The notes under the pieces: generated by a model
What the model was told of the DNA's origin: nothing
Seen by the model: the letters and a program-made list of their open reading frames with translations, nothing else
Databases searched by the model: none
IMG/VR virus record: IMGVR_UViG_2541047708_000006
Length of the DNA: 58,959 nucleotides
From: a virus
Taxonomy: Duplodnaviria > Heunggongvirae > Uroviricota > Caudoviricetes
Direction: 5' to 3' (one strand)
Translations under genes and position numbers: made by a program
Shown here: positions 698 to 57,451 of the stretch, one piece after another
Layout: each line of letters starts with the position of its first letter
How positions within the stretch are numbered: the first letter of the stretch is position 1

Positions 698-1060
698 GGG
701 GCTGATTCTGGATTCGACGGGATTTGCGAAACCCAAGGTGCATGCCGAGGGGCGGTTGGCCTCGTAAAAAGCCGCAAAAAATAGTCGCAAACGACGAAAA
801 CTACGCTTTAGCAGCTTAATAACCTGCTTAGAGCCCTCTCTCCCTAGCCTCCGCTCTTAGGACGGGGATCAAGAGAGGTCAAACCCAAAAGAGATCGCGT
901 GGAAGCCCTGCCTGGGGTTGAAGCGTTAAAACTTAATCAGGCTAGTTTGTTAGTGGCGTGTCCGTCCGCAGCTGGCAAGCGAATGTAAAGACTGACTAAG
1001 CATGTAGTACCGAGGATGTAGGAATTTCGGACGCGGGTTCAACTCCCGCCAGCTCCACCA
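698..1060 (+). ncRNA. ssrA: tmRNA (transfer-messenger RNA)
   Basis: Starts GGGGCTGATTCTGGATTCGACGGG, contains tag-reading-frame region, ends GGTTCAACTCCCGCCAGCTCCACCA; matches recalled E. coli ssrA. Confidence 0.95.
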
Positions 1061-1215
1061 ATCATGATTGGACGGTGTAAGGACAACACCAACAAAAACA
1101 GGATGTTAGCAGTCTCAGCAGGACACCGACCAGACGGTGAGGGGACAAAAAAGGATACGCAAAGGAGCCGCGGCTCTTTAGTTACATGAAAGCCCGCTAA
1201 TGCGGGCTTTTTTTA
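1034..1215 (+). repeat. Left copy of ~180 bp imperfect direct repeat (ssrA 3' end plus downstream terminator region); prophage attL
   Basis: Same sequence with scattered mismatches recurs at 57273-57451; about 90 percent identity by eye. Confidence 0.8.
1189..1215 (+). terminator. Rho-independent terminator downstream of ssrA
   Basis: Hairpin AAGCCCGC-TAA-TGCGGGCTT followed by T-run. Confidence 0.7.
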
Positions 1216-18816: not shown

Positions 18817-19212
18817 TTATTGCATTCTGGCCAGGCCGCGCTCTGTCATTTCAGCTGCCACACCGACAGAGACACGGAACGCCGTTCCCGGCAGCACAAA
18901 TGCCACAGCCTCATCCCGCGTGGCGTGAAGTGCATCAGTATGCAGCGTCACCAGTGCCACAACCGTGACCAGTTCAGCCGTATCAGTCACGGTATCCGGC
19001 TGCGCTGATACAACCTCATTTTCATGTCCGGTCAGCGCATTTTCCGGGCTGACAGATGTGTCCTGACCGGCAGCGTCATCCGTGTCATCAAGCTCCTCTT
19101 CCAGCTCTGCCACACGGAGTGCCAGTTCTTCTTTCGTCCCCGTCAGGCTGACATCACGGTTCAGTTGCTCACCCAGCACCTGAAGACGGGCAATCAGTTC
19201 ATCTTTCGTCAT
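18817..19212 (-). CDS. FI: DNA packaging protein FI
   Basis: Start placed at MTKDELIARL (codon 14 of the ORF) giving about 131 aa like lambda FI. Confidence 0.8.
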   Translation of the reverse strand: MTKDELIARLQVLGEQLNRDVSLTGTKEELALRVAELEEELDDTDDAAGQDTSVSPENALTGHENEVVSAQPDTVTDTAELVTVVALVTLHTDALHATRDEAVAFVLPGTAFRVSVGVAAEMTERGLARMQ

Positions 19213-19253
19213 GGACTCCTCCACAGAGAGAAAATGGCCCCGAAGGGCCATGA

Positions 19254-20033
19254 TTACGCCAGTTGTACGGACACGAACGCATCAGGGTCAGCCAGCAGCA
19301 TCAGCGGTGCTGACTGAATCATGGTGAACTCACGCGCCGGATCGCCGGTGGTCACCCAGTTTTTCGGGTAGCGGGCAGAGGCGTTAATACCTTCGCGCTG
19401 TGCGTCCGCATCCTGAATGCAGCCATAGGTGCGCAGACCGCGTGCCTGAGTGTTCCCCAGCACCATCGTGTTGTCCGGCAGGAAGTTCTTTTTGACGTCG
19501 TTTTCCACGTACTGTCCGGAATACACGACGATCGCCGTATCGCCATACATCCCCTTATAGGACACCGCTTCGCCCAGGTCTTTTACCGCTGTCTCCAGCT
19601 CGGAATTAGAGCCGCGACGGGTATCCAGCTTCTCCTTGACGGCTTTGAAGGAACGGAACAGCGCCCAGCCTTTCGGATCAAACACGATGATATTCACCAC
19701 GCCGCTGGCGTTCAGCGCGTAGGCTTCGATATCGTCGGTCGGGTCATACGTGGACTTGTCACGCTTGCTCCACTCCGTACCACCGGACTGTGTGATGTTG
19801 TTCGCCGCACTGCGGCCCATATCCACTTCAACCGGATCGAAGGCTTCACCGGTCATGGTGTATTTGCCCTTAAGCACGGCAGAAACTGCCTGCATCTCTT
19901 CGACCTGAGCAATGGCCAGCTCTTCGTCTCGCATGTTCTGCATGATGATGCGACGGCGGCGGTAAGCCGGGTCCGCCAGATTCTGTGGATCTTCATCCGG
20001 CAGGCGACGCAGGGTCATCTGCGGATTCACCTC
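19254..20033 (-). pseudogene. E: Major capsid protein E, 3' portion (codons 83-341) separated from its 5' portion by the inserted satellite
   Basis: Translation EVNPQMTLRRLPDEDPQNLADPAYRRRRIIMQNMRDEE... matches recalled lambda gpE from residue 83; no upstream start; stop codon 3 codons upstream of junction. Confidence 0.9.
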
Positions 20034-20034
20034 A

Positions 20035-20044
20035 TGCTTGGGTT
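20035..20044 (+). repeat. Satellite att core, left copy (TGCTTGGGTT)
   Basis: Identical 10-mer at 30768-30777; lies exactly at the break in gene E. Confidence 0.8.
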
Positions 20045-20203
20045 ACATGAGTCAATGGTGTAAGTATGTGAATGATATAAGAGGAAAAATAGAGCATAAT
20101 CTCTACCTGAATGGCTATGTTGCAATACACACTGCAATACACAGAAATCAATGTACAAACCATTCAATTATCAACCCACAAATGAAGTGAATAAAGATTT
20201 GTT

Positions 20204-20965
20204 ATGAATATTATAGATACCCTTCAAAATGACCTAGAGCGCGCAGTAGCGCTTCAAAACATACTAATTGCAAGAGCTACAGGAGCCCAGGATGAAGCTA
20301 ATAATGATTATTTGCTTCTAAGAACATATTTCTTACAAAATCCTCCTTTACATCAGCTATTACCAGAGTTTGTGAGAACTAATCGCTCACTAAAAGAATT
20401 TTGGGGATTTATAAAAAAGACTGAAAAGTATGCCCCCCGGAGAGATTTGATTTATAAGGCATTTCAGCCGATGCTGGACTATCTAGAAGGGAAAAATAAA
20501 GCTCCAGCGGATGAAGACATATCTGATGTATTAAGAAAGTTTAACGAGGATGGAGTCCACGCCGTTTGGATAAAAGCACTTGAACGGCGCCATACAGATC
20601 CGGATGGTGCGATAACCTCCGCAAGAACACTTCTTGAAACAGTTTGCAAACACATTCTTGATGATATGGGCATTCAGTATAATAATAAAAATATTGAAAT
20701 GTCAGAGCTTTATAAAACTCTTTCAAAAGAACTTAACCTATCTGCCGACCAACATACTGAAAATATCTTCAAACAAATTCTCGGCGGTTGTTCTGCAGTT
20801 GTAAATGGGTTAGGTACTCTTCGTAATAAACTCGGTGATGCACATGGAACGAACAGCTCATCAATTAAGCCATCCCCAAGGCATGCCGAACTTGCAGTAA
20901 ATTTATCAGGCTCAATGGCTCTTTTTTTAATTAACACTTGGTTAAACCTTAAAGATGGGAAATAA
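20204..20965 (+). CDS. HEPN-type Abi_C-like (abortive infection C-terminal domain) protein
   Basis: 253 aa, AT-rich; C-terminal motif LRNKLGDAHG (R-x6-H) typical of HEPN/Abi_C. Confidence 0.7.
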   Translation: MNIIDTLQNDLERAVALQNILIARATGAQDEANNDYLLLRTYFLQNPPLHQLLPEFVRTNRSLKEFWGFIKKTEKYAPRRDLIYKAFQPMLDYLEGKNKAPADEDISDVLRKFNEDGVHAVWIKALERRHTDPDGAITSARTLLETVCKHILDDMGIQYNNKNIEMSELYKTLSKELNLSADQHTENIFKQILGGCSAVVNGLGTLRNKLGDAHGTNSSSIKPSPRHAELAVNLSGSMALFLINTWLNLKDGK

Positions 20966-21187
20966 CGTATAATGAAGTAACACGAGCAATTAGTTAATCA
21001 TTATACTCAGTCGATTAATTTATTTTGACGACTCGTAAGCAATTTTTCGATGAGGGCGGAACTCCGCCCTCGGTGCTAACCTATGAGAAACGATATCTCT
21101 TCCACCGATACCATAATATTAGGTATCGCGAAGAAGCCCCAAAATCAGTGTGTTGCTTTTACTACCCAAACTACCTGTAGTTTCATA

Positions 21188-21213
21188 GTCGAGTTGCAAA
21201 TTTGCAATTCGAC
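21188..21213. promoter_or_regulatory. 26 bp near-perfect palindrome (candidate operator)
   Basis: GTCGAGTTGCAAATTTGCAATTCGAC; one symmetric mismatch pair. Confidence 0.4.
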
Positions 21214-21367
21214 TACCAGCCACAAGGCGTAAATTTGCGTCGTCAGGAATATCAACGAGTTAGCATATGAATAGGCCAAACGGCCACAAACCTCACTTTT
21301 GAGGCTTGCTCATTTATTAGCTGGCTATGGTAAGGCCCATTTTGGGGCCGTCGAGAAAATCAAAGAG

Positions 21368-21643
21368 TTATCGCCGCAGTCTGTCAGGCTTCTTCCACTG
21401 GTACGATGCAACGTTCTGGCGTTGTCCCTGCCTCCGCCTAGCTGCCAGTATAGCCAGCACTTTGGTGCGGATGACTAAGCAATCCTGTCCGTTCAGTTCT
21501 ATACCGTCACGCCACATAACCTCAGCAACCACACGAGCGTAATTTTCAGCGGTGACACTGCCCGGCTGCGTGGCCTGTTCGTCATGCTGGTGGCTGACTC
21601 CACCAGCATGGCAGATTACTTTCAGTAGTTCGGATTCAGTCAT
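21368..21643 (-). CDS. Hypothetical protein downstream of satellite TerS
   Basis: 91 aa ORF 12 bp downstream of TerS on the same strand. Confidence 0.4.
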   Translation of the reverse strand: MTESELLKVICHAGGVSHQHDEQATQPGSVTAENYARVVAEVMWRDGIELNGQDCLVIRTKVLAILAARRRQGQRQNVASYQWKKPDRLRR

Positions 21644-21654
21644 AGCGTACTACG

Positions 21655-22182
21655 TTACTTATCCTTATTCAGCTGCAACTTATCCGGTACGTTTCCTGTA
21701 CTTTCCATCAGATAATCAGCCAGTATCTGTGGGAGGTTGTCAGCAACGCCGGCACTGGCATTACAGGCTTTAGCCACTTCCTTTTTAAGTCCATCCAGCA
21801 TAGCCGGAGTCATCTGTGGGAAGCGCCTTTGCATGGTAAGCGGCAGGCTGTCCATGATAGATGAAATCTGACTCGCCAGTTTGGAAAGAACATACATACA
21901 AAACTCTGTATCAATAACGTCGCCGCGTTCGCGCTCGTTTTTAAGCTCCTGCGCCTCTGCCTGTGCTGTCAGTAATCTGATCCTGACGCGTAAAAGTTCA
22001 TCGTCATCAATATCGCCCGTTTCGTTTGTAATCTGGCTGATTGCATTGTTAACCCGATTATCTATTACACTGGCAACATCATAGAACGCCTCACGGCCCT
22101 TACGCTCGACGGGAATCACTCCCCACTTATCGAACGCAGTGGCGCTTACACGGCAACTTTTTGCCATGTTTTTTTTGTTCAT
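21655..22182 (-). CDS. Satellite small terminase subunit, divergent Nu1 homologue
   Basis: Aligns by eye with helper Nu1 (36411-36956) including C-terminal region ...LPLTMQRRFPQM...; start placed at MNKKNMAK. Confidence 0.8.
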   Translation of the reverse strand: MNKKNMAKSCRVSATAFDKWGVIPVERKGREAFYDVASVIDNRVNNAISQITNETGDIDDDELLRVRIRLLTAQAEAQELKNERERGDVIDTEFCMYVLSKLASQISSIMDSLPLTMQRRFPQMTPAMLDGLKKEVAKACNASAGVADNLPQILADYLMESTGNVPDKLQLNKDK

Positions 22183-22309
22183 CAGGTGTAATTTCATTGA
22201 TACCACAACTTAATTACTGTTTCAGGTTGGTGTATTGATTGTATTTTTCTCTTATTATTCATACAGATATAGCGAACAACAAAACCACCACCAGTCCCCT
22301 TAAAATGCT

Positions 22310-22370
22310 CATAAATAGCGAAAACCCGCGCGCCTGACGCCCCGTAGCCTGTCAGATCGCCGGAAAGGAC
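22310..22370 (-). promoter_or_regulatory. Satellite cos site (lambda-like cosN flanks, different 12-nt core)
   Basis: CATAAATAGCGAAAACCCGCG-CGCCTGACGCCC-CGTAGCCTGTCAGATCGCCGGAAAGGACCCG parallels helper cos at 37110-37175, differing mainly in the cohesive-end core. Confidence 0.7.
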
Positions 22371-22398
22371 CCGCCAGCCAGAGCAGGCCCTAATTTCA

Positions 22399-22782
22399 TC
22401 AACCAATCAGCTTATAGCGACCATCCCGTGCATTGCGGCGTACACGCTCAATCTTGAGGCATAGCGCCGCATCTGGCTTTTTTGGGACAGGTACGCGGCA
22501 ATATTCAGAAGCGCGAGGAATATTATTTATCCAGTCGATCACTTCACTTAAATACCAGGCCTTACGCCCTTCCGTAACCTGCACACGCTCCGGGAACTCT
22601 CCACTAGCCTCAAGGTTTAGCAGTGTACGACGACTCAGGGTTGTAATTTCCATCACCTGATTCATATCAACAAGGCGCTCGCTTAAACACATTTTGTCAG
22701 CGATAGCTTTTAATTCCTCTACAGCTTGATTCGGGTACATCATTTCGGCAATTGGCTTAAGGTCATTGTAATCATTCTGCAT
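22399..22782 (-). CDS. AlpA/excisionase-family HTH DNA-binding protein
   Basis: C-terminal half MEITTLSRRTLLNLEASGEFPERVQVTEGRKAWYLSEVIDWINN is an AlpA-like motif; start uncertain. Confidence 0.6.
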   Translation of the reverse strand: MQNDYNDLKPIAEMMYPNQAVEELKAIADKMCLSERLVDMNQVMEITTLSRRTLLNLEASGEFPERVQVTEGRKAWYLSEVIDWINNIPRASEYCRVPVPKKPDAALCLKIERVRRNARDGRYKLIG

Positions 22783-22793
22783 TGTATCCCCCT

Positions 22794-23135
22794 TTACACA
22801 CGAGCCAGCGGCTGAACAGAAATACCTGAGCCAACAAACGCTGCAACCTTTACTGACAGTTCTTTAACAGACTCAGGCCAGTTCAGAGCATCAACATTTA
22901 AGACACCTGTCTTATAGACCTGAGCCTGTGTTTTTTTCGCGGTGTCGATTTGTACAGCGGAAACATAAACCGCTTTACCTACGCTCGAACCATCCCATAC
23001 TACCAGTGCACCTGTTGCATCTTCCTGCATCAGTGGCGTAAATGCAGGAATTACCCCTTTATTAGCTGAAAATATCCCCAGCGTAGTCACCAGTGCTTCA
23101 GTGCCAGCCATGAGTTCAGTGTAATGAGTAGCCAT
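22794..23135 (-). CDS. Head decoration protein, divergent gpD homologue
   Basis: 113 aa; shares TPLM, LVxWDG, AxVGxxAV, LxWP, AFxG blocks with helper gpD (31068-31400). Confidence 0.7.
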   Translation of the reverse strand: MATHYTELMAGTEALVTTLGIFSANKGVIPAFTPLMQEDATGALVVWDGSSVGKAVYVSAVQIDTAKKTQAQVYKTGVLNVDALNWPESVKELSVKVAAFVGSGISVQPLARV

Positions 23136-23144
23136 TGCTCCCCC

Positions 23145-24191
23145 TTAGCCAATGCGAACGGTAACAAAACGATTGATGCGGGCCGGTATTGGCTGTGGTG
23201 CTGAATGTGTCTGCACATATTCAATAGCCGGATCACCAGGCACAATATAGTTTTTCGGTGCAAGTTCGGCTTTAGTCAGCCCCATTCGGATTAGCTCCGG
23301 ATCCTGAATACCGCCATAGGCGACAATCCCCTGAAGAGCCGTATTGCCAAGCACCATCAAATCAGGATCAAGGAAATGTTTTTCTGTTCCGTCCTCGTCG
23401 GTATAACGCCCGCTGTAAACAACAATCGCAACATCGCCCATATACCCTTTAAAACTCACCGAATCACCAAGGTCTTTAAGGGCCGTTTCCAGTTCGGAAT
23501 TAGAACCACGACGGGTATCCAGAGCCTCTTTTATCGCTCTGAATGAACGGTATTTCTTCCATACATTACCGCCCATAATGATAATATTAGTGACGCCCTC
23601 ACTAAATTCTGCGTAGCTCTCAATATCATCATTTGGATCAAAAGTTTCTTTATCCTTACCTGACCACTCAGCACCGCCAGACTGAGTGATGATATTTTGT
23701 GGTTTAATATTCCAGTCCAGCTCATAACGTTCAATACCATCGCCCTCAATGATATTTTTCCCCGTTGTGATTGCCTGAACGGCAAGCCATTCAATACGTG
23801 CACGAATAGCTTTAGCCTGATTTACAATCGCCTGTTTAACTTTAATATTACGCGCTCCAAAAGCATTGTATTGCTCAGGTGATACACCAACAGGGCGCAC
23901 AGCTAACTTATTTGGATCAATGCTGCTTTTCGGCTTCATATAGCCTGGACGAATTGTTTTTGATTCGTACCCTTCGTCACGTGAAACTTTACTACCCACC
24001 ATAGGAGAACAAAACGCTGCAATTGGGATATTTGGATCGTCGATTGTATCAAGAATAATATCGCGCGATTCAAACATTACCGAGCGAGTAAAAAACAAAC
24101 TGGTAAACAACGCATTTAGTTGTTTTTGTACATCTACAGCATTAACCACCTGTACAAGCTGGGTAGGCGAATATAAATCAACCATACGCAT
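23145..24191 (-). CDS. Major capsid protein, divergent gpE homologue
   Basis: Start placed at MRMVDLYSPTQL; C-terminal two thirds align with gpE (ITQSGGAEWSGKDKETFDPNDDIESYA..., LDTRRGSNSELETALKDLG...). Confidence 0.8.
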   Translation of the reverse strand: MRMVDLYSPTQLVQVVNAVDVQKQLNALFTSLFFTRSVMFESRDIILDTIDDPNIPIAAFCSPMVGSKVSRDEGYESKTIRPGYMKPKSSIDPNKLAVRPVGVSPEQYNAFGARNIKVKQAIVNQAKAIRARIEWLAVQAITTGKNIIEGDGIERYELDWNIKPQNIITQSGGAEWSGKDKETFDPNDDIESYAEFSEGVTNIIIMGGNVWKKYRSFRAIKEALDTRRGSNSELETALKDLGDSVSFKGYMGDVAIVVYSGRYTDEDGTEKHFLDPDLMVLGNTALQGIVAYGGIQDPELIRMGLTKAELAPKNYIVPGDPAIEYVQTHSAPQPIPARINRFVTVRIG

Positions 24192-24402
24192 CCTCTTTGC
24201 ATTCATTAAAAATAATTGTGGATATATGCTATCACCGATATTTGTCATGCGAATACATGCAACCGAGTGCAATGTTGTATAAAGTTTTGGGATAACAACT
24301 TCAGCGCGGATAATTAGTGTTAATATCTTCACTCCCTTTGGTCGGGATTTATGTAGCATGCCGGAAAATTTATTTTTTTCCGGCCTTTTTTATTGGCAAT
24401 AT

Positions 24403-24852
24403 TTAAAACGGAATATCATCTCCCCATTGTTCATTATCTCCCACTGGTGGATGGCTTCCTTGCTGATCTGCCTGTTGTTTTGCTCTGTTCAGTGCGTCAG
24501 TAGCCTGACCCTGTTGACCTTTTTTGCCGCCCGGTCGCACCGTTCGCGCACTGATTACGCTGTCTGCGATAACCTGCCAGCCCTGCCGCGTTTCACCGTT
24601 CTGTCCAGTCCACTGGCTCACCTGCATATTACCCGCCACGCTCAGGAGTTCGCCTTTGTGATGCTTTGCCAGCGCGTCGGCTTGTCTGCCAAACGCCAGG
24701 ACAGATAACCACATCGTCGCCTGACCGTCATCCGACTGACTGCAGGGCAGTGATACCGCCATACGCGCCAGCGTCATGGGGGTGCCCTTGCTGGTCTGTT
24801 TTGTCTGCGGGTCGTCCACCAACCGCCCGTAAACTGATATTTGCGCCGTCAT
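24403..24852 (-). CDS. ssb: Single-stranded DNA-binding protein
   Basis: OB-fold-like N-terminal region, Gly/Gln-rich linker and acidic C-terminal tail ending DDIPF. Confidence 0.85.
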   Translation of the reverse strand: MTAQISVYGRLVDDPQTKQTSKGTPMTLARMAVSLPCSQSDDGQATMWLSVLAFGRQADALAKHHKGELLSVAGNMQVSQWTGQNGETRQGWQVIADSVISARTVRPGGKKGQQGQATDALNRAKQQADQQGSHPPVGDNEQWGDDIPF

Positions 24853-25094
24853 GCTGCCTGCTCTCCGGACTTAATATTGATTGTTGCCACTTCCTCCGCT
24901 TCAGCAATCTCCCGTTCGGTCAGAGTGGCAAAGTTTGCAGCCGCCGTTGTCATGAATGCGCTAATCAGTTCGGGATGTGCTTTCGCGTATCCTTCCCCGG
25001 CGTTGCGGTCGATGATTTTTATCGACACCCTTAACCAGTGTTCCGTCAAATCAAGGGCGTGCGATTGTGATTTTTTTGTGTGCTTCGCTGTCAT
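24849..25094 (-). CDS. Hypothetical protein
   Basis: 81 aa ORF between iterons and ssb, overlaps ssb start by 4 nt. Confidence 0.4.
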   Translation of the reverse strand: MTAKHTKKSQSHALDLTEHWLRVSIKIIDRNAGEGYAKAHPELISAFMTTAAANFATLTEREIAEAEEVATINIKSGEQAA

Positions 25095-25146
25095 AGGCTT
25101 TATCTCACAGCAGTAAATTAAAATTTTTGCGTTTTAACCCTTCACC

Positions 25147-25368
25147 TGTTCACCTTTTGATATTTTCTCTTTTAATTCATAATGTTAATGGGTGAACAGT
25201 TTCACAAAAACTATTCACCAACTGTTCACCACTGTTCACCCTTGAAGCTCAATAAACAATCAAAAAGGTGAACAGTGAATAGTTTGGTGAACAGTTCATA
25301 AATAACTGTTCACCCTATAATATACTGATATAAAAGATATTTATGACAGGGTGAACAGTGGTGAACAG
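25147..25368. repeat. Satellite replication origin iterons (GGTGAACAG / CTGTTCACC, about 9 copies, both orientations)
   Basis: Repeated octamer TGTTCACC, the motif bound by phage P4 alpha protein at ori/crr; immediately downstream of the primase gene. Confidence 0.8.
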
Positions 25369-25381
25369 TTATTCCATAAGT

Positions 25382-27202
25382 TTAATTTTTGCTATCGTCA
25401 TTAGTGACCGATACACATGATGGCATCCAGTCTTCTGATTCCTCCGTCAGTGTCACGTTTGAACGCAAACCGTGCTTCGTTTTCCGTTTCATATACTCCC
25501 TGCCATATTCCGCCATTGCCCCCGGCATATCTTTACCGAAGCGCGTCAGTGTTACAGGTTTACCAAACCCATGTGCCCTCATATAAGCCAGATAGGCATG
25601 ATAGAGATACCTGCGTGGGCTGAATGGCACAATTTCAGCATTACCCACTAACAGGCCATCACACATTACCGATGCCATGAGATAGCCGCAGAAGTCCACC
25701 AGCGAATCCCCCTCTCGCTTTATCGCCAGTGCTTCTTCAGATTTCTGCTGCTCATATAACAGGCGTCTGGCTTCGTCCTGATCAGCAAACCGTGTAAGCA
25801 GATGGCGAATCACTACCGCCAGCTCACCTTCTATTTTTTCCGCCAGCATCGAATCGCGTTCGTTCTCCGGTACAACTTCCGAAAAATTGAATATCACCCG
25901 ACGACGTGAGATCCCCCCGCTGCGGTCACTGAATGACATGGCGTTATTGTTAACCGCCAGCACTACTGCCGGAATACGCGTTGAATAGGGGGCTTTGTGT
26001 TTCGGGTCAATTGCCACCTTGTCACCGCCTGTAATGGCCTTAATCCCTGCCCCATCACCAGCGTAGCGGGTCATATCCGGCATGATAATCAGCGAAAAGC
26101 CAACCACTAACGCACGTTCCCTTGCATCTTCCAGCGCCTTCATGCTTGCTGATACTGTATTCGCCTTACCCGCCAGCATGGTGCAAATCTCCGCCATCAC
26201 ACTTTTACCACTTCCCCCCGGCCCTGTTACCTCAATGAATAACTGCCAGTCGTACCGGTTCGCCAGCACCATGAATAATGCCGCCAGTACGCGATCTGCC
26301 TTGCGGTCATTCTCAGCCACCGAACGGCGCAACCACTTCCAGAAATTCGGCGCATGTGTTGCCAGCGTTTCCCCCTCTGCTGGTGGGCTGAAAGGTAATT
26401 CACTGGCAATTAACAACCAGTCGTTTTTGTTATGCTCCCGAAAATTACCAGTTCTGGTATCAAATACCCCGTTACTGAATCCAATCAGGTTACGGGCTGT
26501 ATTCCCCATTACAGGCAAACTTAACTTCATGGTATCTACCGCCGATTTAATGGCGTTCTGCGAATAGCTGATCTCCGCATCAATGAAAATCTGCGCCATA
26601 GCACGCTGTAACTCTTTATCCTGAACCGGCTCCCATACAACGCCGTTGTAATGATGAACGGTGTCAGAGTCGGCATTGATTGCCAGTTCGCCGCCGTAAT
26701 GTGCAAGGAGAACTTCACCGCGCTGGCTGGCCCCCATCTGATTCAACGCCAAAGATGAAGCACGCTCGTCATTTTTGCGCTCTGCCTTCTTCACTGGCAG
26801 TTCAATCACCAGACTTTCCCCATGCTCCGCTTCAGCTTTTAGGCCGACAAGGCGCGGAGTCCAGTCTTCAGGCTCTCGATCAACAAAGCTACGGTAACAA
26901 CGTGCTTCCTTTACGCCTGCAATAGCAAGTAATGTCGCAACCTTCGTCAGACTTTTCTCTGCAATCTTTCCGGCACGATAAACACGCACATAATGACGGC
27001 CTTCATCGATAATTTGCATATCATCCAGGTTTTCCAGTTGTTCCGTACCCAGAATGACTGGTGGTGTATCATCTGCTGCAATATGCTTACCTGCCCATTC
27101 ATTCCATTCTTTTGCATGGCTCCAGGCATCACTGCCAGCAAAAATGATGACTTCCGTCATTTTGTCGCGCGGTTGGTATTTTAAGTTCGGAGCACGTTTC
27201 AT
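25382..27202 (-). CDS. P4 alpha-like primase-helicase
   Basis: 606 aa; Walker A GPGGSGKS in the central region; position next to TGTTCACC iterons. Confidence 0.85.
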   Translation of the reverse strand: MKRAPNLKYQPRDKMTEVIIFAGSDAWSHAKEWNEWAGKHIAADDTPPVILGTEQLENLDDMQIIDEGRHYVRVYRAGKIAEKSLTKVATLLAIAGVKEARCYRSFVDREPEDWTPRLVGLKAEAEHGESLVIELPVKKAERKNDERASSLALNQMGASQRGEVLLAHYGGELAINADSDTVHHYNGVVWEPVQDKELQRAMAQIFIDAEISYSQNAIKSAVDTMKLSLPVMGNTARNLIGFSNGVFDTRTGNFREHNKNDWLLIASELPFSPPAEGETLATHAPNFWKWLRRSVAENDRKADRVLAALFMVLANRYDWQLFIEVTGPGGSGKSVMAEICTMLAGKANTVSASMKALEDARERALVVGFSLIIMPDMTRYAGDGAGIKAITGGDKVAIDPKHKAPYSTRIPAVVLAVNNNAMSFSDRSGGISRRRVIFNFSEVVPENERDSMLAEKIEGELAVVIRHLLTRFADQDEARRLLYEQQKSEEALAIKREGDSLVDFCGYLMASVMCDGLLVGNAEIVPFSPRRYLYHAYLAYMRAHGFGKPVTLTRFGKDMPGAMAEYGREYMKRKTKHGLRSNVTLTEESEDWMPSCVSVTNDDSKN

Positions 27203-27486
27203 TTGTTACCTCCGGCAACTAACATTGCCCGAATTTTACGGATATAGCCTGCGGCACGCCTCTGATTATCTGTCTTGCAATTTTTTACCAGAATGAAATC
27301 TCTTTCGAACTGCTGACGCGGCATAACACATTCAAAATCATAACCATCACGCAAATAAGAGACACGACGATCATCAACCGAAATAATCTTTACCCGATAG
27401 CCATAGCTATCTTTGAAAATATCCCCAAGGCTGATTTTTGAATGAGTTTGACCGCTGGCAATAAAGCCAGAAAATTTATTTTTCAT
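27199..27486 (-). CDS. Hypothetical protein
   Basis: 95 aa, overlaps primase start by 4 nt. Confidence 0.5.
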   Translation of the reverse strand: MKNKFSGFIASGQTHSKISLGDIFKDSYGYRVKIISVDDRRVSYLRDGYDFECVMPRQQFERDFILVKNCKTDNQRRAAGYIRKIRAMLVAGGNK

Positions 27487-27489
27487 TTT

Positions 27490-27714
27490 TTATTCTCCGG
27501 TATAGCTCTGGTCGTGTATTTTTATAGCTTCATCCAGCTCTTTGATGACAGGATCAAGTAACGTAATTAACGCTCCAGCTAAATTAGCATCCCGTTCATC
27601 GTGTTCCGCATTTGTTGTCCCATCAAGCCAGGTTGATAAGATTTCTCGCATATTTTTGCCACAAACGAGCGCGTTTTCAGCATGTGTCAGCACTTTAAAA
27701 TAAAGATCATTCAT
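27490..27714 (-). CDS. Hypothetical protein
   Basis: 74 aa, acidic; tightly packed in operon. Confidence 0.5.
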   Translation of the reverse strand: MNDLYFKVLTHAENALVCGKNMREILSTWLDGTTNAEHDERDANLAGALITLLDPVIKELDEAIKIHDQSYTGE

Positions 27715-28072
27715 GGCACACCTCCTGACGAATACGGGCGGCGAACATCATCACGCAGCCAGTTGGGGATTGCTGGCGGGCTTCCTGTTCGCTGGTGGCC
27801 TCGATGGTAATCACGCGCGGTTGTGCCGTACTCAGGGCGATAAAACGCCAGATGAAATTGTTTTCACATTTCTGAATAAACAGCGTGTTTTCTTCCCGCC
27901 CTTTCCAGAAAGCCGCAGTATAGCCCATCTCCTTAACCATCTTGCGCGCATCAACCAGCGTGTCAGCGGCTACATGTACCGTAGTTGCTCCATCTGCTAT
28001 GCGATCGCGATGTAGCGCCAGAAAGATGTATATAAATTTAGGGTGAGTTTGGGTATGCTGTGTTCCAGCCAT
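27707..28072 (-). CDS. Hypothetical protein
   Basis: 121 aa; first gene of leftward satellite operon. Confidence 0.5.
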   Translation of the reverse strand: MAGTQHTQTHPKFIYIFLALHRDRIADGATTVHVAADTLVDARKMVKEMGYTAAFWKGREENTLFIQKCENNFIWRFIALSTAQPRVITIEATSEQEARQQSPTGCVMMFAARIRQEVCHE

Positions 28073-28103
28073 AGTCGTTACTCCAGTTAACGGTTTGTGG
28101 TTA

Positions 28104-28208
28104 GACGCCCTAGGTGTGTTGCGAGCACCCTAGGGCGTTGTTTATAGGTATAACATCATGTTAATGTGTGTACCTATTCAACACTGATGCTAAGCAATAG
28201 GTACACAC
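28104..28208. promoter_or_regulatory. Divergent promoter/operator region with two inverted repeats
   Basis: GACGCCCTAGGTG...CACCCTAGGGCG and GTGTGTACCTATT...AATAGGTACACAC; the second abuts the ATG at 28209. Confidence 0.4.
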
Positions 28209-28403
28209 ATGTCAACTACAATTCAAAGAGATAAGCAGCCAAAAGGAGCCGGCAAAGCCCCTGCGTTTCAGATCCGAATCAATCCTGAACTCAAAGAACA
28301 GATGGCTGAATCAGCAGCTCAGGAAGGAATGAGCTTGGCCAATTGGATTAAAGAATTAGTTCGTGCTGAGCTTCGCCGTAAAGGTATAGAACCTAAAGGC
28401 TAA
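28209..28403 (+). CDS. Ribbon-helix-helix (Arc/CopG-like) small DNA-binding protein
   Basis: 64 aa; FQIRINPELKEQMAESAAQEGMSLANWIKELVRAEL fits beta-strand/helix/helix pattern. Confidence 0.6.
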   Translation: MSTTIQRDKQPKGAGKAPAFQIRINPELKEQMAESAAQEGMSLANWIKELVRAELRRKGIEPKG

Positions 28404-28435
28404 TTTTTTTAATTTTTATTGAATAGGATATTCAA

Positions 28436-29119
28436 ATGACTCCAACTCCTGACGATGCTGTATTCACTGCATCAAACATTATAAATTTCTTCGTGGCACT
28501 CGGGACTTGCACAGCAGTGTTAGTTGCATTAATTGCTAAAAAGCAATCATCTTTTGAATCAACATTTTCTCTCATGTTATCTCAACATAACAATGCTCTA
28601 AATGATCTTAGAAAAAAATCAAATTACTCAGAGTTAATTAATAAAATGATGAATGGATTGGTTTCTTTAAAAGACACTAATACACTGATGCACAATCATG
28701 ATGCTGTTTTTGGAAGCTACTTCAGAATATTATATCATCTATTGAAGTTCATTGATGAAAATGCTGGATACCATCCCTTTGATCTAGATCGTAAAAAAAC
28801 CTATACAAGCCTTGTCCGTGCACATCTAGATAATGAAATAACGTATTTACTTGCAATAAACTGTGCACATGCTAACAGTGAAAATCAATATCATTTTTAT
28901 AAAACATTGATTGAGCGCTATGCCATGTTAGAACATTTAATCTTGGATAAATCAACGCTATTGGACTATACCCCTCCAGATTTAAATGAATATCAAAAAG
29001 ATTTGCGCGTAGCAACAATAGTGGTTACCGATGATATAAAAACTATTTTTAACGAGATTGCAACAGTATATTATAAGAGCGCATTTGGAAAAAACCCTGA
29101 TTTAAAAAATTTCCTGTAA
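28436..29119 (+). CDS. Membrane-anchored protein of unknown function (candidate abortive-infection effector)
   Basis: 227 aa, AT-rich; one N-terminal TM helix (IINFFVALGTCTAVLVALIA); 33 bp downstream of the RHH gene. Confidence 0.65.
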   Translation: MTPTPDDAVFTASNIINFFVALGTCTAVLVALIAKKQSSFESTFSLMLSQHNNALNDLRKKSNYSELINKMMNGLVSLKDTNTLMHNHDAVFGSYFRILYHLLKFIDENAGYHPFDLDRKKTYTSLVRAHLDNEITYLLAINCAHANSENQYHFYKTLIERYAMLEHLILDKSTLLDYTPPDLNEYQKDLRVATIVVTDDIKTIFNEIATVYYKSAFGKNPDLKNFL

Positions 29120-29145
29120 GATATAGGGAGGAATACCTCCCTAAC

Positions 29146-29367
29146 TTACCATTCACCTCTTATCCAAGCTTGAATCTCAGAGAGTCTATAAGCCACCGCC
29201 GTAGATCCGATTTTGATTCGCTTGGGGAATTTCCCCTCCTTTTCAAGCTTCCAGCGTGTGCTGTTCGCAAGAGTGGTTAGCTCCCGACATTCTTTCTCAC
29301 GGATCATTCGGTCAATGTTAGGAATGTACTCCAGCCCCTTTTTATCAACAATTGCCATTTTTTTCAT
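29146..29367 (-). CDS. alpA: AlpA-family transcriptional regulator/excisionase
   Basis: 73 aa, typical AlpA pattern, directly downstream of integrase. Confidence 0.8.
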   Translation of the reverse strand: MKKMAIVDKKGLEYIPNIDRMIREKECRELTTLANSTRWKLEKEGKFPKRIKIGSTAVAYRLSEIQAWIRGEW

Positions 29368-29368
29368 G

Positions 29369-30604
29369 CTAACCAGCCTTTTGTTTGAGGATTGTCACTT
29401 TTGAATCAGCAGCTGCGATGCTATTGAGATATGTAGTCCAGAGTTCCAGAGCATCCAGTTTTTTAGCCATAAACTTACTCCGGTTGTAAACACCTGCCAC
29501 GCCAGGTAGCGCATGGCCTAACAGTTGTTCTACTACATAAAATTCAACACCGAGATCACTTAGATGAGTAGATAGCGTTCTTCTAAGGTCGTGTAGTGAC
29601 CATTGTTTTTCATGGCCCAAACGTTTACCGATTTTCCCCCCAATCTTGCTTACGCTTTCTCTAATTCGCAGACTTCCCAGCACATAACCAGTATGTTTTG
29701 TCTCTTCGTGAACATCCGTTACCCACTGCCGTAGAATTTCAGGTACTGGCCTGACAATTTCAACACCAGTTTTTGAGTGATCTTTCGGTACAGTCCAAAC
29801 CCAACTTTCTAGATCCCATTCGCTCCATTCTGATAATCGGGCTTCACTCATTCGACATCCAAATACTGTACAAAGCACAAACATTTTTCGCGTGTATTCA
29901 GACATTAGTTTTAAATCAGGCTCGACAAAAATTGCCTTCCAGAGCTGGCCCAGTTCGGCTTCATCCAGAACCCGATCCCGCTTACCTGCAATCTGCCCCA
30001 CATCACTCATGCGCAAATCCTTTAAAGCATCACACGTCGCGTACTGGCGTACCCGACAAAAACGAAGAGCTAATTTAGTGTCAGAAAAAACATACGCCGC
30101 CATAACTGGTGCATTACGTTTAATTCGGTCAAAACAGTCCAGCCATTCATATAGGTGAGTGTCATTTACGGGCAAATGACCGATATAGGGAAAGATATGC
30201 TTTCGAAATCTGCCAAGCGTTACAGCATGAGTTTTACGACGCACCTTACAGTAATTTTCATACCAGTAATTTAGTGCATCCTCCACTGTGACCGGCTTTA
30301 AGCGTTCTTCAGCCTGAATCTTAATCTGAATACGCGGATCACGTTTGTCAGCCAACCAACCACGGCACTCGTCGCGCTTTTCCCTTGCCTGTTTGAGTGA
30401 CATATCAGGATATTTACCCAACGTTAGCCAGACCGGAGCAGCCCGGCCACCTGCTAACCTGTAGAAGAAAACAAAGCTCACAGCCCCCTTGGTACTCACA
30501 CGAATAGAAAGCCCCTTTCCATCAGCAATGGTGATCTGCTTTTCTCTAGGTTTCCCCAGATATCCTTTAAGTGCTTTGTCGCTCAGTTTGTTCTCGCCAG
30601 CCAT
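29369..30604 (-). CDS. int: Tyrosine integrase (P4-like)
   Basis: Start placed at MAGENKLSDKALK (ORF track extends 44 codons further upstream); C-terminal HDLRRT...GH...Y catalytic signature; adjacent to att core. Confidence 0.9.
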   Translation of the reverse strand: MAGENKLSDKALKGYLGKPREKQITIADGKGLSIRVSTKGAVSFVFFYRLAGGRAAPVWLTLGKYPDMSLKQAREKRDECRGWLADKRDPRIQIKIQAEERLKPVTVEDALNYWYENYCKVRRKTHAVTLGRFRKHIFPYIGHLPVNDTHLYEWLDCFDRIKRNAPVMAAYVFSDTKLALRFCRVRQYATCDALKDLRMSDVGQIAGKRDRVLDEAELGQLWKAIFVEPDLKLMSEYTRKMFVLCTVFGCRMSEARLSEWSEWDLESWVWTVPKDHSKTGVEIVRPVPEILRQWVTDVHEETKHTGYVLGSLRIRESVSKIGGKIGKRLGHEKQWSLHDLRRTLSTHLSDLGVEFYVVEQLLGHALPGVAGVYNRSKFMAKKLDALELWTTYLNSIAAADSKVTILKQKAG

Positions 30605-30766
30605 TTTTAGCCCCAAAAAGCAATACAAGCTGCAATACAGAGATGATTGCAACACACAGATAACGAGGAAAATCCAGTGAAAGCGCCAGATAAACTTACT
30701 CTTTATTATCAAAAGATTAAGTGTAAAAACCAGCAACTACACGAAAGCCTCAGAAAGCCATGCTAA

Positions 30767-31012
30767 GTGCTTGGGTTTGACATATCCCGGTGTAAATTCA
30801 GAGGTGGAGCCGCCACGGGATCGGATAACCTCACCGGAAACAATCGGCGAAACGTACAGCGCCATGTTTACCAGTCCCGGAATTTGTGAGAGATAGACTT
30901 TCTCCGTGGTGAAGGGATAGCTCTCACGGAAAAAGAGACGCAGAAACAGCGGATCAAACTTAAATTTCTTCTCATTTGCCGCCAGCAGCTGGGCGGTTGT
31001 GTACATCGACAT
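30767..31012 (-). pseudogene. E: Major capsid protein E, 5' portion (codons 1-82), reads into satellite and stops after 9 foreign codons
   Basis: MSMYTTAQLLAANEKKFKFDPLF...GYVKPKH matches recalled gpE N-terminus, then LAWLSEAFV-stop. Confidence 0.9.
30768..30777 (+). repeat. Satellite att core, right copy (TGCTTGGGTT)
   Basis: Identical to 20035-20044. Confidence 0.8.
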
Positions 31013-31067
31013 AAAAAAATCCCGTAAAAAAAGCCGCACAGGCGGCCTTTAGTGATGAAGGGTAAGG

Positions 31068-31400
31068 TTAAACGATGCTGATTGCCGTTCCGGCAAACGC
31101 GGTCCGTTTTTTCGTCTCGTCGCTGGCAGCCTTCGGCCAGAGCACATCCTCATAACGGAACGTGCCGGACTTGTAGAACGTCAGCGTGGTGCTGGTCTGG
31201 TCAGCTGCAACCGCCAGAATGCCAACGGCAGCACCGTCGGTGGTGCCATCCCACGCAACCAGCTTACGGGTGGCGGTGTCCAGCATCAGCGGGGTCATTG
31301 CAGGCGCTTTCGCACTCAATCCGCCGGGCGCGGTTGCGGTATGAGCCGGGTCACTGTTGCCCAGCGGCTGGTAATGGGTAAAGGTTTCTTTGCTCGTCAT
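31068..31400 (-). CDS. D: Head decoration protein D
   Basis: [27 protein letters not shown]... matches recalled lambda gpD. Confidence 0.95.
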
Positions 31401-36436: not shown

Positions 36437-36956
36437 TCAGCAACCCCGGTATCAGTTCATCCAGCGCGGCTGCTTTGTTCATGGCTTTGATGATATCCCG
36501 TTTCAGGAAATCAATATGCCGGTTATCCAGCTCAGGAAAACGCCGCTGCACCGACAGGGGGATCCCGTCGAGAATACTGGCAATTTCACCTGCGATCCGC
36601 GACAGCACGAAAGTACAGAATGCGGTTTCCACTACTTCAGCGGAGTCTCTGGCATTTTTCAGCTCCTGTGCGTCGGCCTGCGCACGCGTAAGTCGATGGC
36701 GTTCGTACTCAATAGTCCCAGGCTGGAGATCTGCCTCGCTGGCAGCCCTGTAATCCTCAACCTCTTTACGGAGTTTTTCATTTTCGATATCAGCTTCCCT
36801 CTGCGCATACCACTGAATTGCCATGGCGGTATCAAATACAGATTCAACGCCCTTACTACCTCCGGAGACGCAAGGGAGTCCCTGAGACTGCCAGCGTTCA
36901 ATCGTTCGCGGATCCACGTTGAAAATTTCGGCAAGTTTCTTTTTATTAACCTTCAT
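36411..36956 (-). CDS. Nu1: Terminase small subunit Nu1
   Basis: [23 protein letters not shown]...; lambda Nu1-like; about 190 bp from cosN as in lambda. Confidence 0.95.
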
Positions 36957-37098
36957 GAAACAGTCTCACAATAAATACAGGGTCCGACATGAAAGTGCCC
37001 GAAAATGACTTTTTTAGGCGTTTTCATGTCGGACCTTTTACGGATTCGATATTAGAAAAAACAAATAGTTATGTTCGAGAAGTACCGACATGATTTTC

Positions 37099-37180
37099 CC
37101 CGGAAAAATTTCATAAATAGCGAAAACCCGCGAGGTCGCCGCCCCGTAACCTGTCGGATCGCCGGAAAGGACCCGAAAAA
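37099..37180 (-). promoter_or_regulatory. Helper prophage cos site (cosN core about 37133-37144, cohesive end GGGCGGCGACCT on minus strand)
   Basis: Reverse complement reads GGGCGGCGACCTCGCGGGTTTTCGCTATTTATGAAA..., the lambda left end; preceded by ...CCGACAGGTTACG as at the lambda right end. Confidence 0.85.
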
Positions 37181-38906: not shown

Positions 38907-39138
38907 TAAGCAAAAAAGCTCCCGAAGGAGCCTTCATTTTCACTTTCTTAAATCTAACGACAGATGGCTAACATTTAAGTATTGTGAAATATTATCAAAT
39001 GTAATCATCATTGATTTACAAAAGATACATTTTGCCCCGAAAGGATTTCTGTCAGAAACATCAAAAGATGATGTTCTATACTGAGAACCATGGCAACACG
39101 GGCATCTAAAGTGAATATGGTTTGTAATATTTTCTACC

Positions 39139-39351
39139 TCAAAGTGCCACTACATGAACAGCTGCAGGGCCTTTAGGTCCGTTCTCAATACCAAATTCGA
39201 CTTCCTGATTCTCAGTTAACGTTTTGAAATCGTTGCTCTGAATAGCTGAGAAATGCACAAACACATCTTTGCTACCATCTTTCGGCGTGATGAAACCAAA
39301 ACCTTTTTCAGGGTTAAACCATTTCACTAAACCAGTCATTTTGTTAGACAT
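39139..39351 (-). CDS. Cold-shock protein (CspA family)
   Basis: [19 protein letters not shown]...[11 protein letters not shown] motifs. Confidence 0.9.
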
Positions 39352-39714
39352 CATTATTACCTTTTGAAGAAGTTAGCCCTTGGGCAGAATGGTCCGAAAA
39401 AAAATATCAGAGAGAAAAACCAACAAGAAAATCTCAAGAGGTACAAATAATAAAATTATAACAATGACTGCTTCAGATAATTTTGTAACAAACCAGAACA
39501 CCATTAACGCATGATTAACCAACCATAGCAAGGATTACTTTTGTAAAGAAAAACACACGAATGAAACAATAGCTTTATTTATTAATAAAACGTGTCATTC
39601 TGTCTAATGACCTTTTATCTTACCCTTAAGATTTCAAGGATTTTGACTCATGGAAGAGTCCTTTTTATTTAAATTTCACATTCAGCGCTAAAAATAATCC
39701 GATTTAATATTAAT

Positions 39715-42312: not shown

Positions 42313-42587
42313 GTGGTACTTTTTGTGGGAGTCATCCACTTACGCACTTTGTTTTGCTATGCCAGCAGTTAGCTTCTGCTGTAAAACTATTCATGCAGCA
42401 AACCTGCACTTCACCACAATGGTTAGCATACTTTTCCTGATTAAGTTATTGCCAAATATGCTGGCCATTGTTTCATGTATTGGACCTCCTTACTATTTAT
42501 TAAAGAGATCCAATATTCACCACTCTGTCTGTATCTCCACTCAGGCATCAGCCTTCTTCGTTATCGTATACAGACAAACTATGAATT

Positions 42588-42803
42588 TTAATCAGTAATT
42601 ATGACATTTGCTGCTGCAGGACCTTTAGCACCACTCTCTACAGAGAAGGTAACCTTTTGACCTTCAAATAAGGTTCGAAAATTATCATTCTGAATCGCAG
42701 AAAAATGCACAAACACATCTTTACTACCATCAACAGGAGAAATAAAGCCAAAACCTTTATCAGCGTTAAACCATTTTACTAAACCAGTCATTTTATTTGA
42801 CAT
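42588..42803 (-). CDS. Cold-shock protein (CspA family)
   Basis: [21 protein letters not shown]... Confidence 0.9.
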
Positions 42804-43103
42804 TCTACATTCCTTAACTTGAGCCTTTCGGCATAAATGGCTTGTATAACAGAAACGACTTCGTACTTAATTGGAGAGACTCAAAGAAGGAATAAGTGAA
42901 TAACACCTGAAATGAGAACTGCTTTAGTAAACTACTTCGTATATCGTCTGTTCTTCAAACCGACGCAATCATTAACGCATAGTTGAACATATGAAGCAAT
43001 GTTTATTTTAGACATCCAGCCATCTTCAACCCCATCAAAAAACTATAGCTTTCTTCAGGAACGTGTGTATAGTGCGCCCAGTTATCAGTATTAAGGAATT
43101 TTT

Positions 43104-53284: not shown

Positions 53285-53392
53285 AAATCAGCACGTACGA
53301 ATTCAAACTCTGCCATAAAAGAACATATAAGTAATTTATTAACATATAGATATAGGTTATATTACAAATTGAAAAATTATTGGAGAGCAACA

Positions 53393-57272: not shown

Positions 57273-57451
57273 CGGGTTCAACTCCCGCCAGCTCCACCAA
57301 TCATGATTGGACGGTGTAAGGACTACACCAACAAAAACAGGAAGTTATAAGTCTCAGCAGGACACCGACCAGACGGTGAGGAGACAAAAAAGGATACGCA
57401 ACGGAGTCGCGACTCCCTATGACATTAAAGCCCGCTGATGCGGGCTTTTTT
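57273..57451 (+). repeat. Right copy of direct repeat: partial ssrA 3' end (57273-57299) plus downstream region; prophage attR
   Basis: CGGGTTCAACTCCCGCCAGCTCCACCA then sequence paralleling 1061-1215 with scattered mismatches. Confidence 0.8.
57427..57451 (+). terminator. Rho-independent terminator (duplicate of ssrA terminator)
   Basis: AAGCCCGC-TGA-TGCGGGCTT plus T-run. Confidence 0.6.

Follow-up and report, generated by a model that had tools for sequence, protein, structure and literature searches.

A lambda-type capsid gene split at a 10-bp repeat

The window, a stretch of 58,959 bp, contains a composite prophage of 56,239 bp integrated at the 3' end of the tmRNA gene ssrA, a length that matches that of the published composite Eco955.56.Z. 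Nu1, A, W, B, C and D are found upstream of the capsid gene E; downstream of it come FI, FII, Z, U and V, then the tail genes through J. In the annotation the core genes for head, tail and lysis and gene Q are all intact, and a few pseudogenes are present (DinI-like, tail-fibre fragments, YdfR). PADLOC returned only weak matches for the open reading frames beside the helper integrase (55654-56842 and 53369-54259). The features that delimit the composite and the interrupted gene are as follows.

698-1060, ssrA tmRNA gene, with the outer att block at its 3' end
1034..1084, plus strand, outer composite att identity block of 51 bp, 3' end of ssrA
19254..20034, minus strand, 3' fragment of the helper major capsid gene E, codon 83 to the stop codon
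20035..20044, minus strand, attR copy of the 10-bp identity block AACCCAAGCA, exact block
30768..30777, minus strand, attL copy of the 10-bp identity block AACCCAAGCA, exact block
30768..31012, minus strand, 5' fragment of E, codons 1-82, core included
57273..57323, plus strand, second copy of the outer att block

Gene E lies on the minus strand in two parts (31012..30768 and 20034..19254), which are separated by an element of 10,733 bp, so that the original prediction of a lambda-like capsid gene split by a 10.7-kb satellite, with both fragments on this strand, is borne out. In the integrated state the 5' fragment runs on into satellite DNA and meets a stop 18 codons later, and the 3' fragment is without its first 82 codons. 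As in other helper-embedded phage-inducible chromosomal islands (HE-PICIs), the attP supplies no replacement gene end, and the target gene is thus truly disrupted. The direct repeat proposed for the two junctions was found at exactly the positions given above; it reads TGCTTGGGTT on the plus strand and AACCCAAGCA on the coding strand, occurs only these two times in the 58,959 bp, and is identical to the identity block aacccaagca of the HE-PICI site group E:Phage_cap_E:80. Since the bases next to it differ between the two copies (a/t at one end, c/t at the opposite end), it is exactly 10 bp long. The crossover falls at some point inside this block, so the split itself stands but its placement exactly between codons 82 and 83 does not; the break falls within codons 79-82, in agreement with the position at about codon 80 of the lambda late gene E cognate that defines the group. 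The 5' part, previously taken to start at 30767, starts at 30768.

Joining the two halves yields an open reading frame of 1026 nt (341 codons plus stop) without any indel, as had been anticipated for precise excision. Compared with the undivided E of Escherichia phage ev207 (NC_049949), the rebuilt gene shows differences at 8 of 1026 nucleotides, which amount to six synonymous and two non-synonymous codons and no indels; the two parts are collinear halves of one gene. Joining the left half of attL to the right half of attR gives exactly the attB of ev207. In a sequence search both fragments match the intact E of about 80 lambda-like phages, the two pieces together spanning 1026 bp. When six loci from other strains were considered along with the window, all seven split E genes could be rebuilt without stops or indels, the differences being mostly synonymous. 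The attL junction was found in 173 of 5426 complete E. coli genomes; in one of them, that of E. coli C 237-04 (CP109921), the split locus is 100% identical over all 11,759 bp.

The predicted junction sequence of the restored E is ...GTCAAACCCAAGCATGAGGTG... and that of the satellite circle is ...CATGTAACCCAAGCACTTAGC...

The integration module and identity with a catalogued HE-PICI

The element carries its integration genes on the side of the E 5' fragment, where the integrase and AlpA had been placed from the outset, together with one pair of repeats near either end.

29369..30604, minus strand, tyrosine integrase with Arm-DNA-bind_3 and Phage_integrase domains
29146..29367, minus strand, AlpA-family regulator (domain match), candidate excisionase
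30619..30641, minus strand, integrase-proximal doubled motif, TGTATTGC twice, starting 131.5 bp downstream of the attP centre
20121..20143, minus strand, distal doubled motif, TGTATTGC twice, ending 81.5 bp upstream of the attP centre

The TGCAATACA-like repeats noticed earlier at both junctions are real and consist, near each end, of two tandem TGTATTGC cores on the coding strand. Their spacing, measured on the reconstructed attP, conforms to that reported for the group, in which attP contains the doubled motif tgTGTATTGCantgTGTATTGCa at two places, one 81 +/- 2 bp upstream of the centre and the other 132 +/- 2 bp downstream (PMC10111431). The genes for integrase, AlpA and primase all lie on the minus strand and are co-oriented with the interrupted E, which is a further property of the group. 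The integrase is identical to that of the founder element 11capE of E. coli NRG857c at 409 of 411 residues, with two differences, an identity high enough to place it in the 11capE subclade without a tree.

Both the arrangement and this exact element at this exact site were published and catalogued in 2023 (Tommasini, Mageeney and Williams, PMC10111431); the entry is listed in the supplement of that paper and had been missed by the original prediction. The element is very probably an HE-PICI of site group E:Phage_cap_E:80 with the genotype of Eco955.11.E_Phage_cap_E_80, which resides in composite Eco955.56.Z and occupies KE699208.1:45250-55982. The catalogued element has the same length of 10,733 bp and the same 10-bp core, its printed attL (163 nt) and attR (154 nt) match the window base for base, and its composite of 56 kb likewise occupies the tmRNA gene with the same 51-bp att block; among the features compared (length, att sequences, core and outer site) there is no difference.

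The founder of the group, Eco567.11capE in prophage 50icd of E. coli NRG857c, shares with the element in the window the E site and core, the doubled arm motif with its spacing, and the same variant cosN 12-mer. In the replication and capsid backbone the two elements agree at 99.4% over 5.6 kb, and in the integrase-alpA region at 96.9%. In contrast, 11capE is 11,077 bp long and its prophage is located at icd, whereas the composite in the window is at ssrA; its two cargo hot spots hold a hypothetical protein and a DUF262 plus HEPN pair; and it has a lambda-type cosB and no terS, whereas the variant in the window brings a Nu1-like terS of its own and differs in the sequence that follows cosN. The Nu1-like TerS by the variant cos and two Abi-type cargo genes are a minor addition to the description of 11capE in the paper.

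Gene content and relation to other satellites

The remaining genes and the cos-like site of the satellite are given below in order from the integrase-proximal end.

28436..29119, plus strand, putAbiC-domain cargo gene in variable hot spot 1, weak AbiC/AbiP matches in PADLOC
28209..28403, plus strand, YlcI/YnfO-type small protein with HicB/RHH-like domain
27707..28072, minus strand, Icd-like protein by RefSeq annotation, no significant Pfam match
27490..27714, minus strand, hypothetical backbone gene of 74 aa, also in 11capE
27199..27486, minus strand, DUF4222 protein (domain match)
25382..27202, minus strand, primase-helicase, the PICI pri gene (D5_N / DUF5906 / Pox_D5)
24849..25094, minus strand, hypothetical backbone gene of 81 aa (annotation)
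24403..24852, minus strand, single-strand DNA-binding protein (domain match)
23145..24185, minus strand, the satellite's own Phage_cap_E capsid homologue, 42% identical to helper E, closest PDB entry 3bqw
22794..23135, minus strand, the satellite's own lambda-D-type head decoration homologue, 38% identical to helper D
22399..22782, minus strand, second AlpA-domain helix-turn-helix protein, 127 aa (domain match)
22295..22373, minus strand, satellite cos-like site, 85% identical to helper cos over 79 bp
21655..22197, minus strand, Nu1-family small terminase subunit (TerS), 34% identical to helper Nu1, absent from 11capE
21368..21643, minus strand, hypothetical gene of 91 aa that travels with terS
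20204..20965, plus strand, Abi_C / AbiJ-like abortive-infection cargo gene in variable hot spot 2 (domain match and PADLOC)

By domain content the satellite comprises integrase, AlpA, D5-type primase, SSB, capsid E, decoration D and Nu1. Three zones of the four-zone plan in the paper (Integration, Bro, Replication, Late) are clear in the window, namely Integration, Replication and Late; between alpA and the Icd-like gene lie the putAbiC-like and HicB-like genes, and Pfam detected no Bro-N domain in the zone where the general PICI plan puts a Bro-N protein, a point that counts against the assignment. Immunity RNAs of the C4/isrK type have been reported in some HE-PICIs (PMC10111431). An Rfam scan of the whole window for such P4-type RNAs gave none, the only matches being the tmRNA and two cspA thermoregulators. 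In a scan for consensus promoters and terminators across 19000-31300, counts were at or below the expectation from shuffled sequence and do not inform on read-through.

According to the account in PMC10111431 of Gram-negative PICIs such as EcCICFT073 (Fillol-Salom et al. 2018, as cited there), these satellites are of similar size and, like the element in the window, carry integrase, alpA and primase in one direction, a cos site and a lambda-E-type capsid homologue. The capsid homologue in the window matches PDB 3bqw ('Putative capsid protein of prophage') at E = 1e-120 and lacks the 10-bp core. Classical PICIs sit in chromosomal genes and meet their helper only in trans, whereas this element lies inside a late gene of the helper itself. 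The arrangement also resembles regulated gene integrity and phage regulatory switches, in which a tyrosine recombinase element likewise splits a gene, brings no replacement end and restores the frame on excision; here, however, it is a gene of another mobile element, the helper phage, that is split, and the satellite, not the cell, would presumably benefit.

Two other satellite classes were considered and rejected. Capsid-forming PICIs (cf-PICIs) are defined by a complete head module of their own, made up of portal, protease/scaffold, capsid, head-tail connectors and terminase; the 16 genes of the element include homologues only of capsid, decoration and TerS, with no portal, protease or TerL. 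P4-like satellites are defined by the sid/psu/delta genes for capsid size and transactivation and by a CI immunity RNA; the element shows no Pfam domain of the sid/psu/delta type and no C4/isrK match in Rfam, and has in common with this class only the integrase, an AlpA-like protein and the D5-type primase.

A variant packaging module

The satellite has packaging features that set it apart from the prophage around it. At the 12-nt cosN position it reads GGGCGTCAGGCG, which differs at 6 of 12 positions from the helper sequence.

37133..37144, minus strand, helper cosN 12-mer GGGCGGCGACCT, upstream of helper Nu1

Given this divergence and the 34% identity of TerS to Nu1, compatibility with the terminase of the helper is not obvious. 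A comparison of the satellite TerS with PDB sequences, in which it might have corresponded to a solved packaging-redirection protein, gave no match at E <= 0.01. We also considered that the terS/cos module could be peculiar to this element and rejected this, as the module is present at >=80% coverage in 128 E. coli genomes; among its carriers are an HE-PICI located in the portal gene B and, in O157:H7, a chromosomal PICI next to phoQ.

A proposed cycle and its alternatives

The behaviour of the founder provides the experimental background. In NRG857c treated with mitomycin C, qPCR and deep sequencing showed that the 61-kb composite excises precisely and replicates, and that 11capE excises after the composite, in 42-98% of induced composites, to give the predicted attB (restored E) and attP (satellite circle) (PMC10111431). 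Neither virions nor plaque-forming particles were recovered from 11capE/50icd, and many embedding prophages look truncated (PMC10111431); in view of the missing virions, both the transfer of the satellite and the part of the embedding prophage as its helper are putative. The survey counted 491 HE-PICI instances, of which 201 are at the E:Phage_cap_E:80 site (PMC10111431). Our literature search for later experimental work on HE-PICIs gave only citing papers.

The original reading of the locus as a switch, with E interrupted until the satellite excises, agrees with the one published for the sibling 11capE (PMC10111431) and is supported; for the window we infer it. We likewise infer that the satellite excises in this strain, and the embedding prophage would act as its helper. 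The split E would block the supply of helper capsid protein until excision, a case of what the paper terms 'regulated gene integrity' serving the satellite (PMC10111431). Helper late transcription, antiterminated by Q, may run into the co-oriented integrase and alpA genes and so trigger excision. Replication of the satellite would be passive, as part of the composite, and packaging would then proceed from its own cos site, with the Nu1-like TerS probably pairing with the helper TerL (gpA), into heads and tails that come for the most part from the helper. The two Abi-type genes on the opposite strand may represent exchangeable defence cargo.

An assembly artefact or chimeric join, named in the original prediction as a possible refutation, can be set aside with a probability next to nil, given that the same junction stands in 173 independently finished genomes from unrelated studies, one of them identical over all 11,759 bp of the locus, and that the element also appears in the 2023 catalogue (PMC10111431). 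A more substantial alternative is that E is permanently inactivated and that the composite is a fixed defective island, kept for its abortive-infection-type genes and without any switching. The absence of virions from the founder pair and the truncated appearance of many embedding prophages (PMC10111431) would fit such a dead end, as would the two opposite-strand Abi-type genes and the pseudogenes in the surrounding prophage. We nevertheless consider it very unlikely: both E halves are undamaged in all seven split genes, with a synonymous excess, neither the integrase and alpA genes nor the att cores nor any of the four arm half-sites is damaged, the core genes of the helper are annotated as intact, and the near-identical 11capE did excise upon induction at the frequencies cited above (PMC10111431).

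It is also conceivable that the satellite uses the embedding prophage as no more than a landing pad and is mobilised by another lambdoid phage, one with a terminase matching its variant cos and TerS, the split E serving to cripple a resident competitor. The difference between the satellite cosN GGGCGTCAGGCG and the resident GGGCGGCGACCT, together with the low identity of TerS to the resident Nu1, speaks for this, as does the occurrence of the same module of capsid, D, HTH, cos and terS in the O157:H7 chromosomal PICI beside phoQ, which has no embedding phage. The flanks of cos are, however, conserved with the resident prophage, and the C-terminal half of the satellite TerS, which corresponds to the part of Nu1 that contacts gpA in lambda, aligns well with the resident protein. 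Moreover, the sites used by the integrase clade as a whole are late genes of lambda-like prophages, entered in co-orientation; this points to a functional link with the embedding phage, and we regard mobilisation by another phage as unlikely.

Within the favoured reading, in which excision from E serves the satellite, the additional packaging genes invite a bolder extension. The satellite capsid and decoration proteins would build the first heads on the helper portal and scaffold while E is still split, and its own TerS with the variant cosN/cosB would steer the helper TerL to satellite DNA only, giving the satellite a head start and the helper its virions only after satellite excision. We hold this to be unlikely, and the tolerated knockout of the capsid gene in another PICI (PMC10111431) argues against an essential role of the satellite capsid.

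Significance

HE-PICIs have been described, named, surveyed and partly tested experimentally since 2022-2023, and the present case serves as a positive control, in which a real, published and non-trivial architecture was recovered from raw sequence alone. If the head-start reading were true, the TerS-bearing variant would supplement the capsid-gene 'timer' with a further, autonomous level of packaging. The arrangement itself, in which the parasite of a virus would hold the capsid gene of that virus hostage and free it by excising, lets a satellite control its helper at a further level, in cis, and is a natural instance of regulated gene integrity between two mobile elements.

A satellite splits the capsid gene of its presumed helper prophage

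By ORF listing and direct reading, the late genes of the embedding prophage (the presumed helper) form a lambda-like operon on the minus strand of the window, and an insert of 10,733 bp, the satellite, divides its major capsid gene E.

Parts of the split E gene
31012..30768, minus: E 5' part (major capsid gene of lambda type), codons 1-82, ending ...TPGYVKPKH
20034..19254, minus: E 3' part, other 259 codons and stop, starting EVNPQMTL
20035-20044 and 30768-30777: core copies

The 58,959-base window has just two copies of the core (plus strand TGCTTGGGTT, coding strand AACCCAAGCA), in agreement with the direct repeat that the original prediction saw bounding the insert; their flanking bases differ, which sets the length of the identity block at exactly 10 bp. 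The crossover had been placed exactly between codons 82 and 83; it lies instead somewhere in this block, which spans codons 79-82, and the start of the 5' fragment is corrected from 30767 to 30768. As proposed, the E halves are collinear, and joining them with one core copy yields an in-frame ORF of 1026 nt (341 codons); compared with the uninterrupted E gene of Escherichia phage ev207, it has 8 nt differences (six synonymous and two non-synonymous codons). Across the site, ev207 corresponds to the left half of attL joined to the right half of attR. The suggested alignment to lambda-type E gave the same picture: in about 80 lambda-like phages of the collection searched, the two fragments matched separately and jointly covered 1026 bp. 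Some other split E genes, those of E. coli E203449 and STEC711, have AGCCGAAGCA as a variant core on the E 5' side, and the supplement of PMC10111431 also lists this variant; the integrase is therefore tolerant of changes at block positions 2 and 5.

Of 5426 complete E. coli genomes, 173 match a 250-bp query for the attL junction over its full length. About 3200 genomes match the E side alone, with matches stopping exactly at the core. Coverage of the entire 11.76-kb interval reaches 80% or more in 47 genomes, one of which, CP109921, is 100% identical. Since junction and interval recur in many genomes, an assembly artefact, which had been named as an alternative, is ruled out. The observed frequency is in line with the published estimate for helper-embedded phage-inducible chromosomal islands (HE-PICIs), which puts the share of E. 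coli genomes with such an element at about 5% (PMC10111431).

The element belongs to a published family

E. coli NRG857c carries the 11-kb PICI Eco567.11capE (11capE), which lies within the lambda-E-type capsid gene of its prophage 50icd; the site, E:Phage_cap_E:80, accounts for 201 of the 491 surveyed HE-PICIs (Tommasini, Mageeney and Williams, 2023; PMC10111431). The published core, aacccaagca, is that of the window. The integrases differ at 2 of 411 residues; identity between the elements is 96.9% for integrase and alpA and 99.4% for 5.6 kb of replication and capsid sequence. For the diagnostic doubled motif tgTGTATTGCantgTGTATTGCa, the published distances from the attP centre are 81 +/- 2 bp (upstream) and 132 +/- 2 bp (downstream) (PMC10111431), and those in the reconstructed window attP are 81.5 and 131.5 bp, respectively; the TGCAATACA-like repeats predicted near the junctions are this motif.

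In the supplement of PMC10111431, the composite Eco955.56.Z, located at the tmRNA gene, contains the entry Eco955.11.E_Phage_cap_E_80 (KE699208.1/55982-45250, 10,733 bp). The att sequences printed for this entry (attL, 163 nt; attR, 154 nt) are exactly those of the window, and the printed 51-bp outer att block of the composite is found at 1034-1084 and 57273-57323, giving a composite of 56,239 bp. An element of this genotype, at this very site, had therefore already been catalogued.

Gene content and cargo

The satellite genes share the orientation of E except for three on the plus strand, and they include the tyrosine integrase and AlpA that had been recognised from the sequence.

Genes of the satellite
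29369-30604, minus: tyrosine integrase with arm-binding domain
29146-29367, minus: AlpA
28436-29119, plus: putAbiC-domain protein
28209-28403, plus: HicB/RHH-like YlcI/YnfO protein
27707-28072, minus: Icd-like protein
27490-27714, minus: small hypothetical protein
27199-27486, minus: DUF4222 protein
25382-27202, minus: D5-type primase-helicase
24849-25094, minus: small hypothetical protein
24403-24852, minus: SSB
23145-24185, minus: Phage_cap_E capsid homologue
22794-23135, minus: lambda-D-type decoration homologue
22399-22782, minus: second AlpA-domain protein
21655-22197, minus: Nu1-family small terminase (TerS)
21368-21643, minus: small hypothetical protein
20204-20965, plus: Abi_C/AbiJ-like protein

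Judged by sequence identity to the helper (capsid/E 42%, decoration/D 38%, TerS/Nu1 34%), the satellite capsid, decoration and TerS genes are old homologues of E, D and Nu1 and not recent copies.

Cargo occupies two hot spots whose genes run counter to the backbone, and at both of them defence-type genes are exchanged among otherwise near-identical elements (window and comparison loci L002 and L007-L010). Between alpA and the Icd-like gene, the window carries putAbiC-like and HicB-like genes (28209-29119, plus), whereas the PK8275 element encodes a TIR protein and 11capE a hypothetical protein. The distal hot spot holds the AbiJ-like gene (20204-20965, plus) in the window, but DUF262 and HEPN in the NRG857c and CT265 elements. 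The E203449 element has DUF2971 there, together with an IS66 insertion that adjoins terS.

Packaging region and other helper features

A cos-like site of the satellite (22295-22373) and the helper cos (37097-37175) have flanks that are 85% identical over 79 bp, with GGGCGTCAGGCG in the satellite and GGGCGGCGACCT in the helper at the 12-nt cosN position. The cos-like site of 11capE likewise has helper-matching flanks and the same variant 12-mer; there, cosN is followed by a lambda-type cosB, whereas in the window satellite another spacer takes this place and a Nu1-like terS is present, a gene absent from 11capE (PMC10111431). This terS module suggests that packaging specificity may be supplied by the satellite. 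The module is not unique to the window element, as it is present in 128 genomes (at least 80% coverage). Among these occurrences, the combination of capsid, D, HTH, cos and terS belongs in O157:H7 to a chromosomal PICI next to phoQ, and in another case to an HE-PICI that interrupts portal gene B.

In the helper, some 290 bp (36812-37100) comprising the Nu1 start and cosB region do not align to the CP109921 prophage; outside this block, the two prophages are 99.6-99.8% identical. This suggests that the terminase-recognition region may have been swapped between near-identical helpers.

The helper prophage also contains cspI- and cspB-like cold-shock genes, each with an upstream RNA element, and further ORFs that are possible prophage moron or defence genes.

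Other features of the helper
39093-39509 and 42525-42964, minus: cspA-thermoregulator RNAs (Rfam RF01766)
53369-54259, plus: 296-aa membrane ORF, weak Csx27-like match (PADLOC)
55654-56842, minus: two ORFs between helper integrase and outer att site, one with a weak HEPN-like match

Integrity of E and excision

Such insertions might be regarded as decaying dead ends. Against this, the split E genes of the window and of six loci from other strains all (7/7) rebuild to 1026-nt ORFs with no stops or indels, including genes that diverge from the window by 1.7-6.8%, mostly through synonymous differences. In the most similar complete genome, the annotation gives the helper head, tail, lysis and Q genes as intact.

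For 11capE, att junctions were tracked by qPCR and deep sequencing after mitomycin C induction: the 61-kb composite left icd in a minority of cells and replicated. Among the excised composites, 42-98% had lost 11capE at 2 h and later, and both predicted products appeared, the attB of a restored E and the attP of the circular satellite; no plaque-forming particles were obtained (PMC10111431). The authors proposed that the satellite must depart before E is expressed, that its replication is passive and its transcription results when late transcription of the helper reads through, and that the arrangement is a case of 'regulated gene integrity' in service of the satellite (PMC10111431). By its near-identity to 11capE, the window satellite would follow this whole mechanism, with E blocked until excision, passive replication with the helper and transcription by late read-through. 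The observation of the interrupted E gene is confirmed, and its interpretation as a switch released by excision is supported. The case is a good validation that real, subtle architecture can be recovered by a first-stage reading of the sequence.
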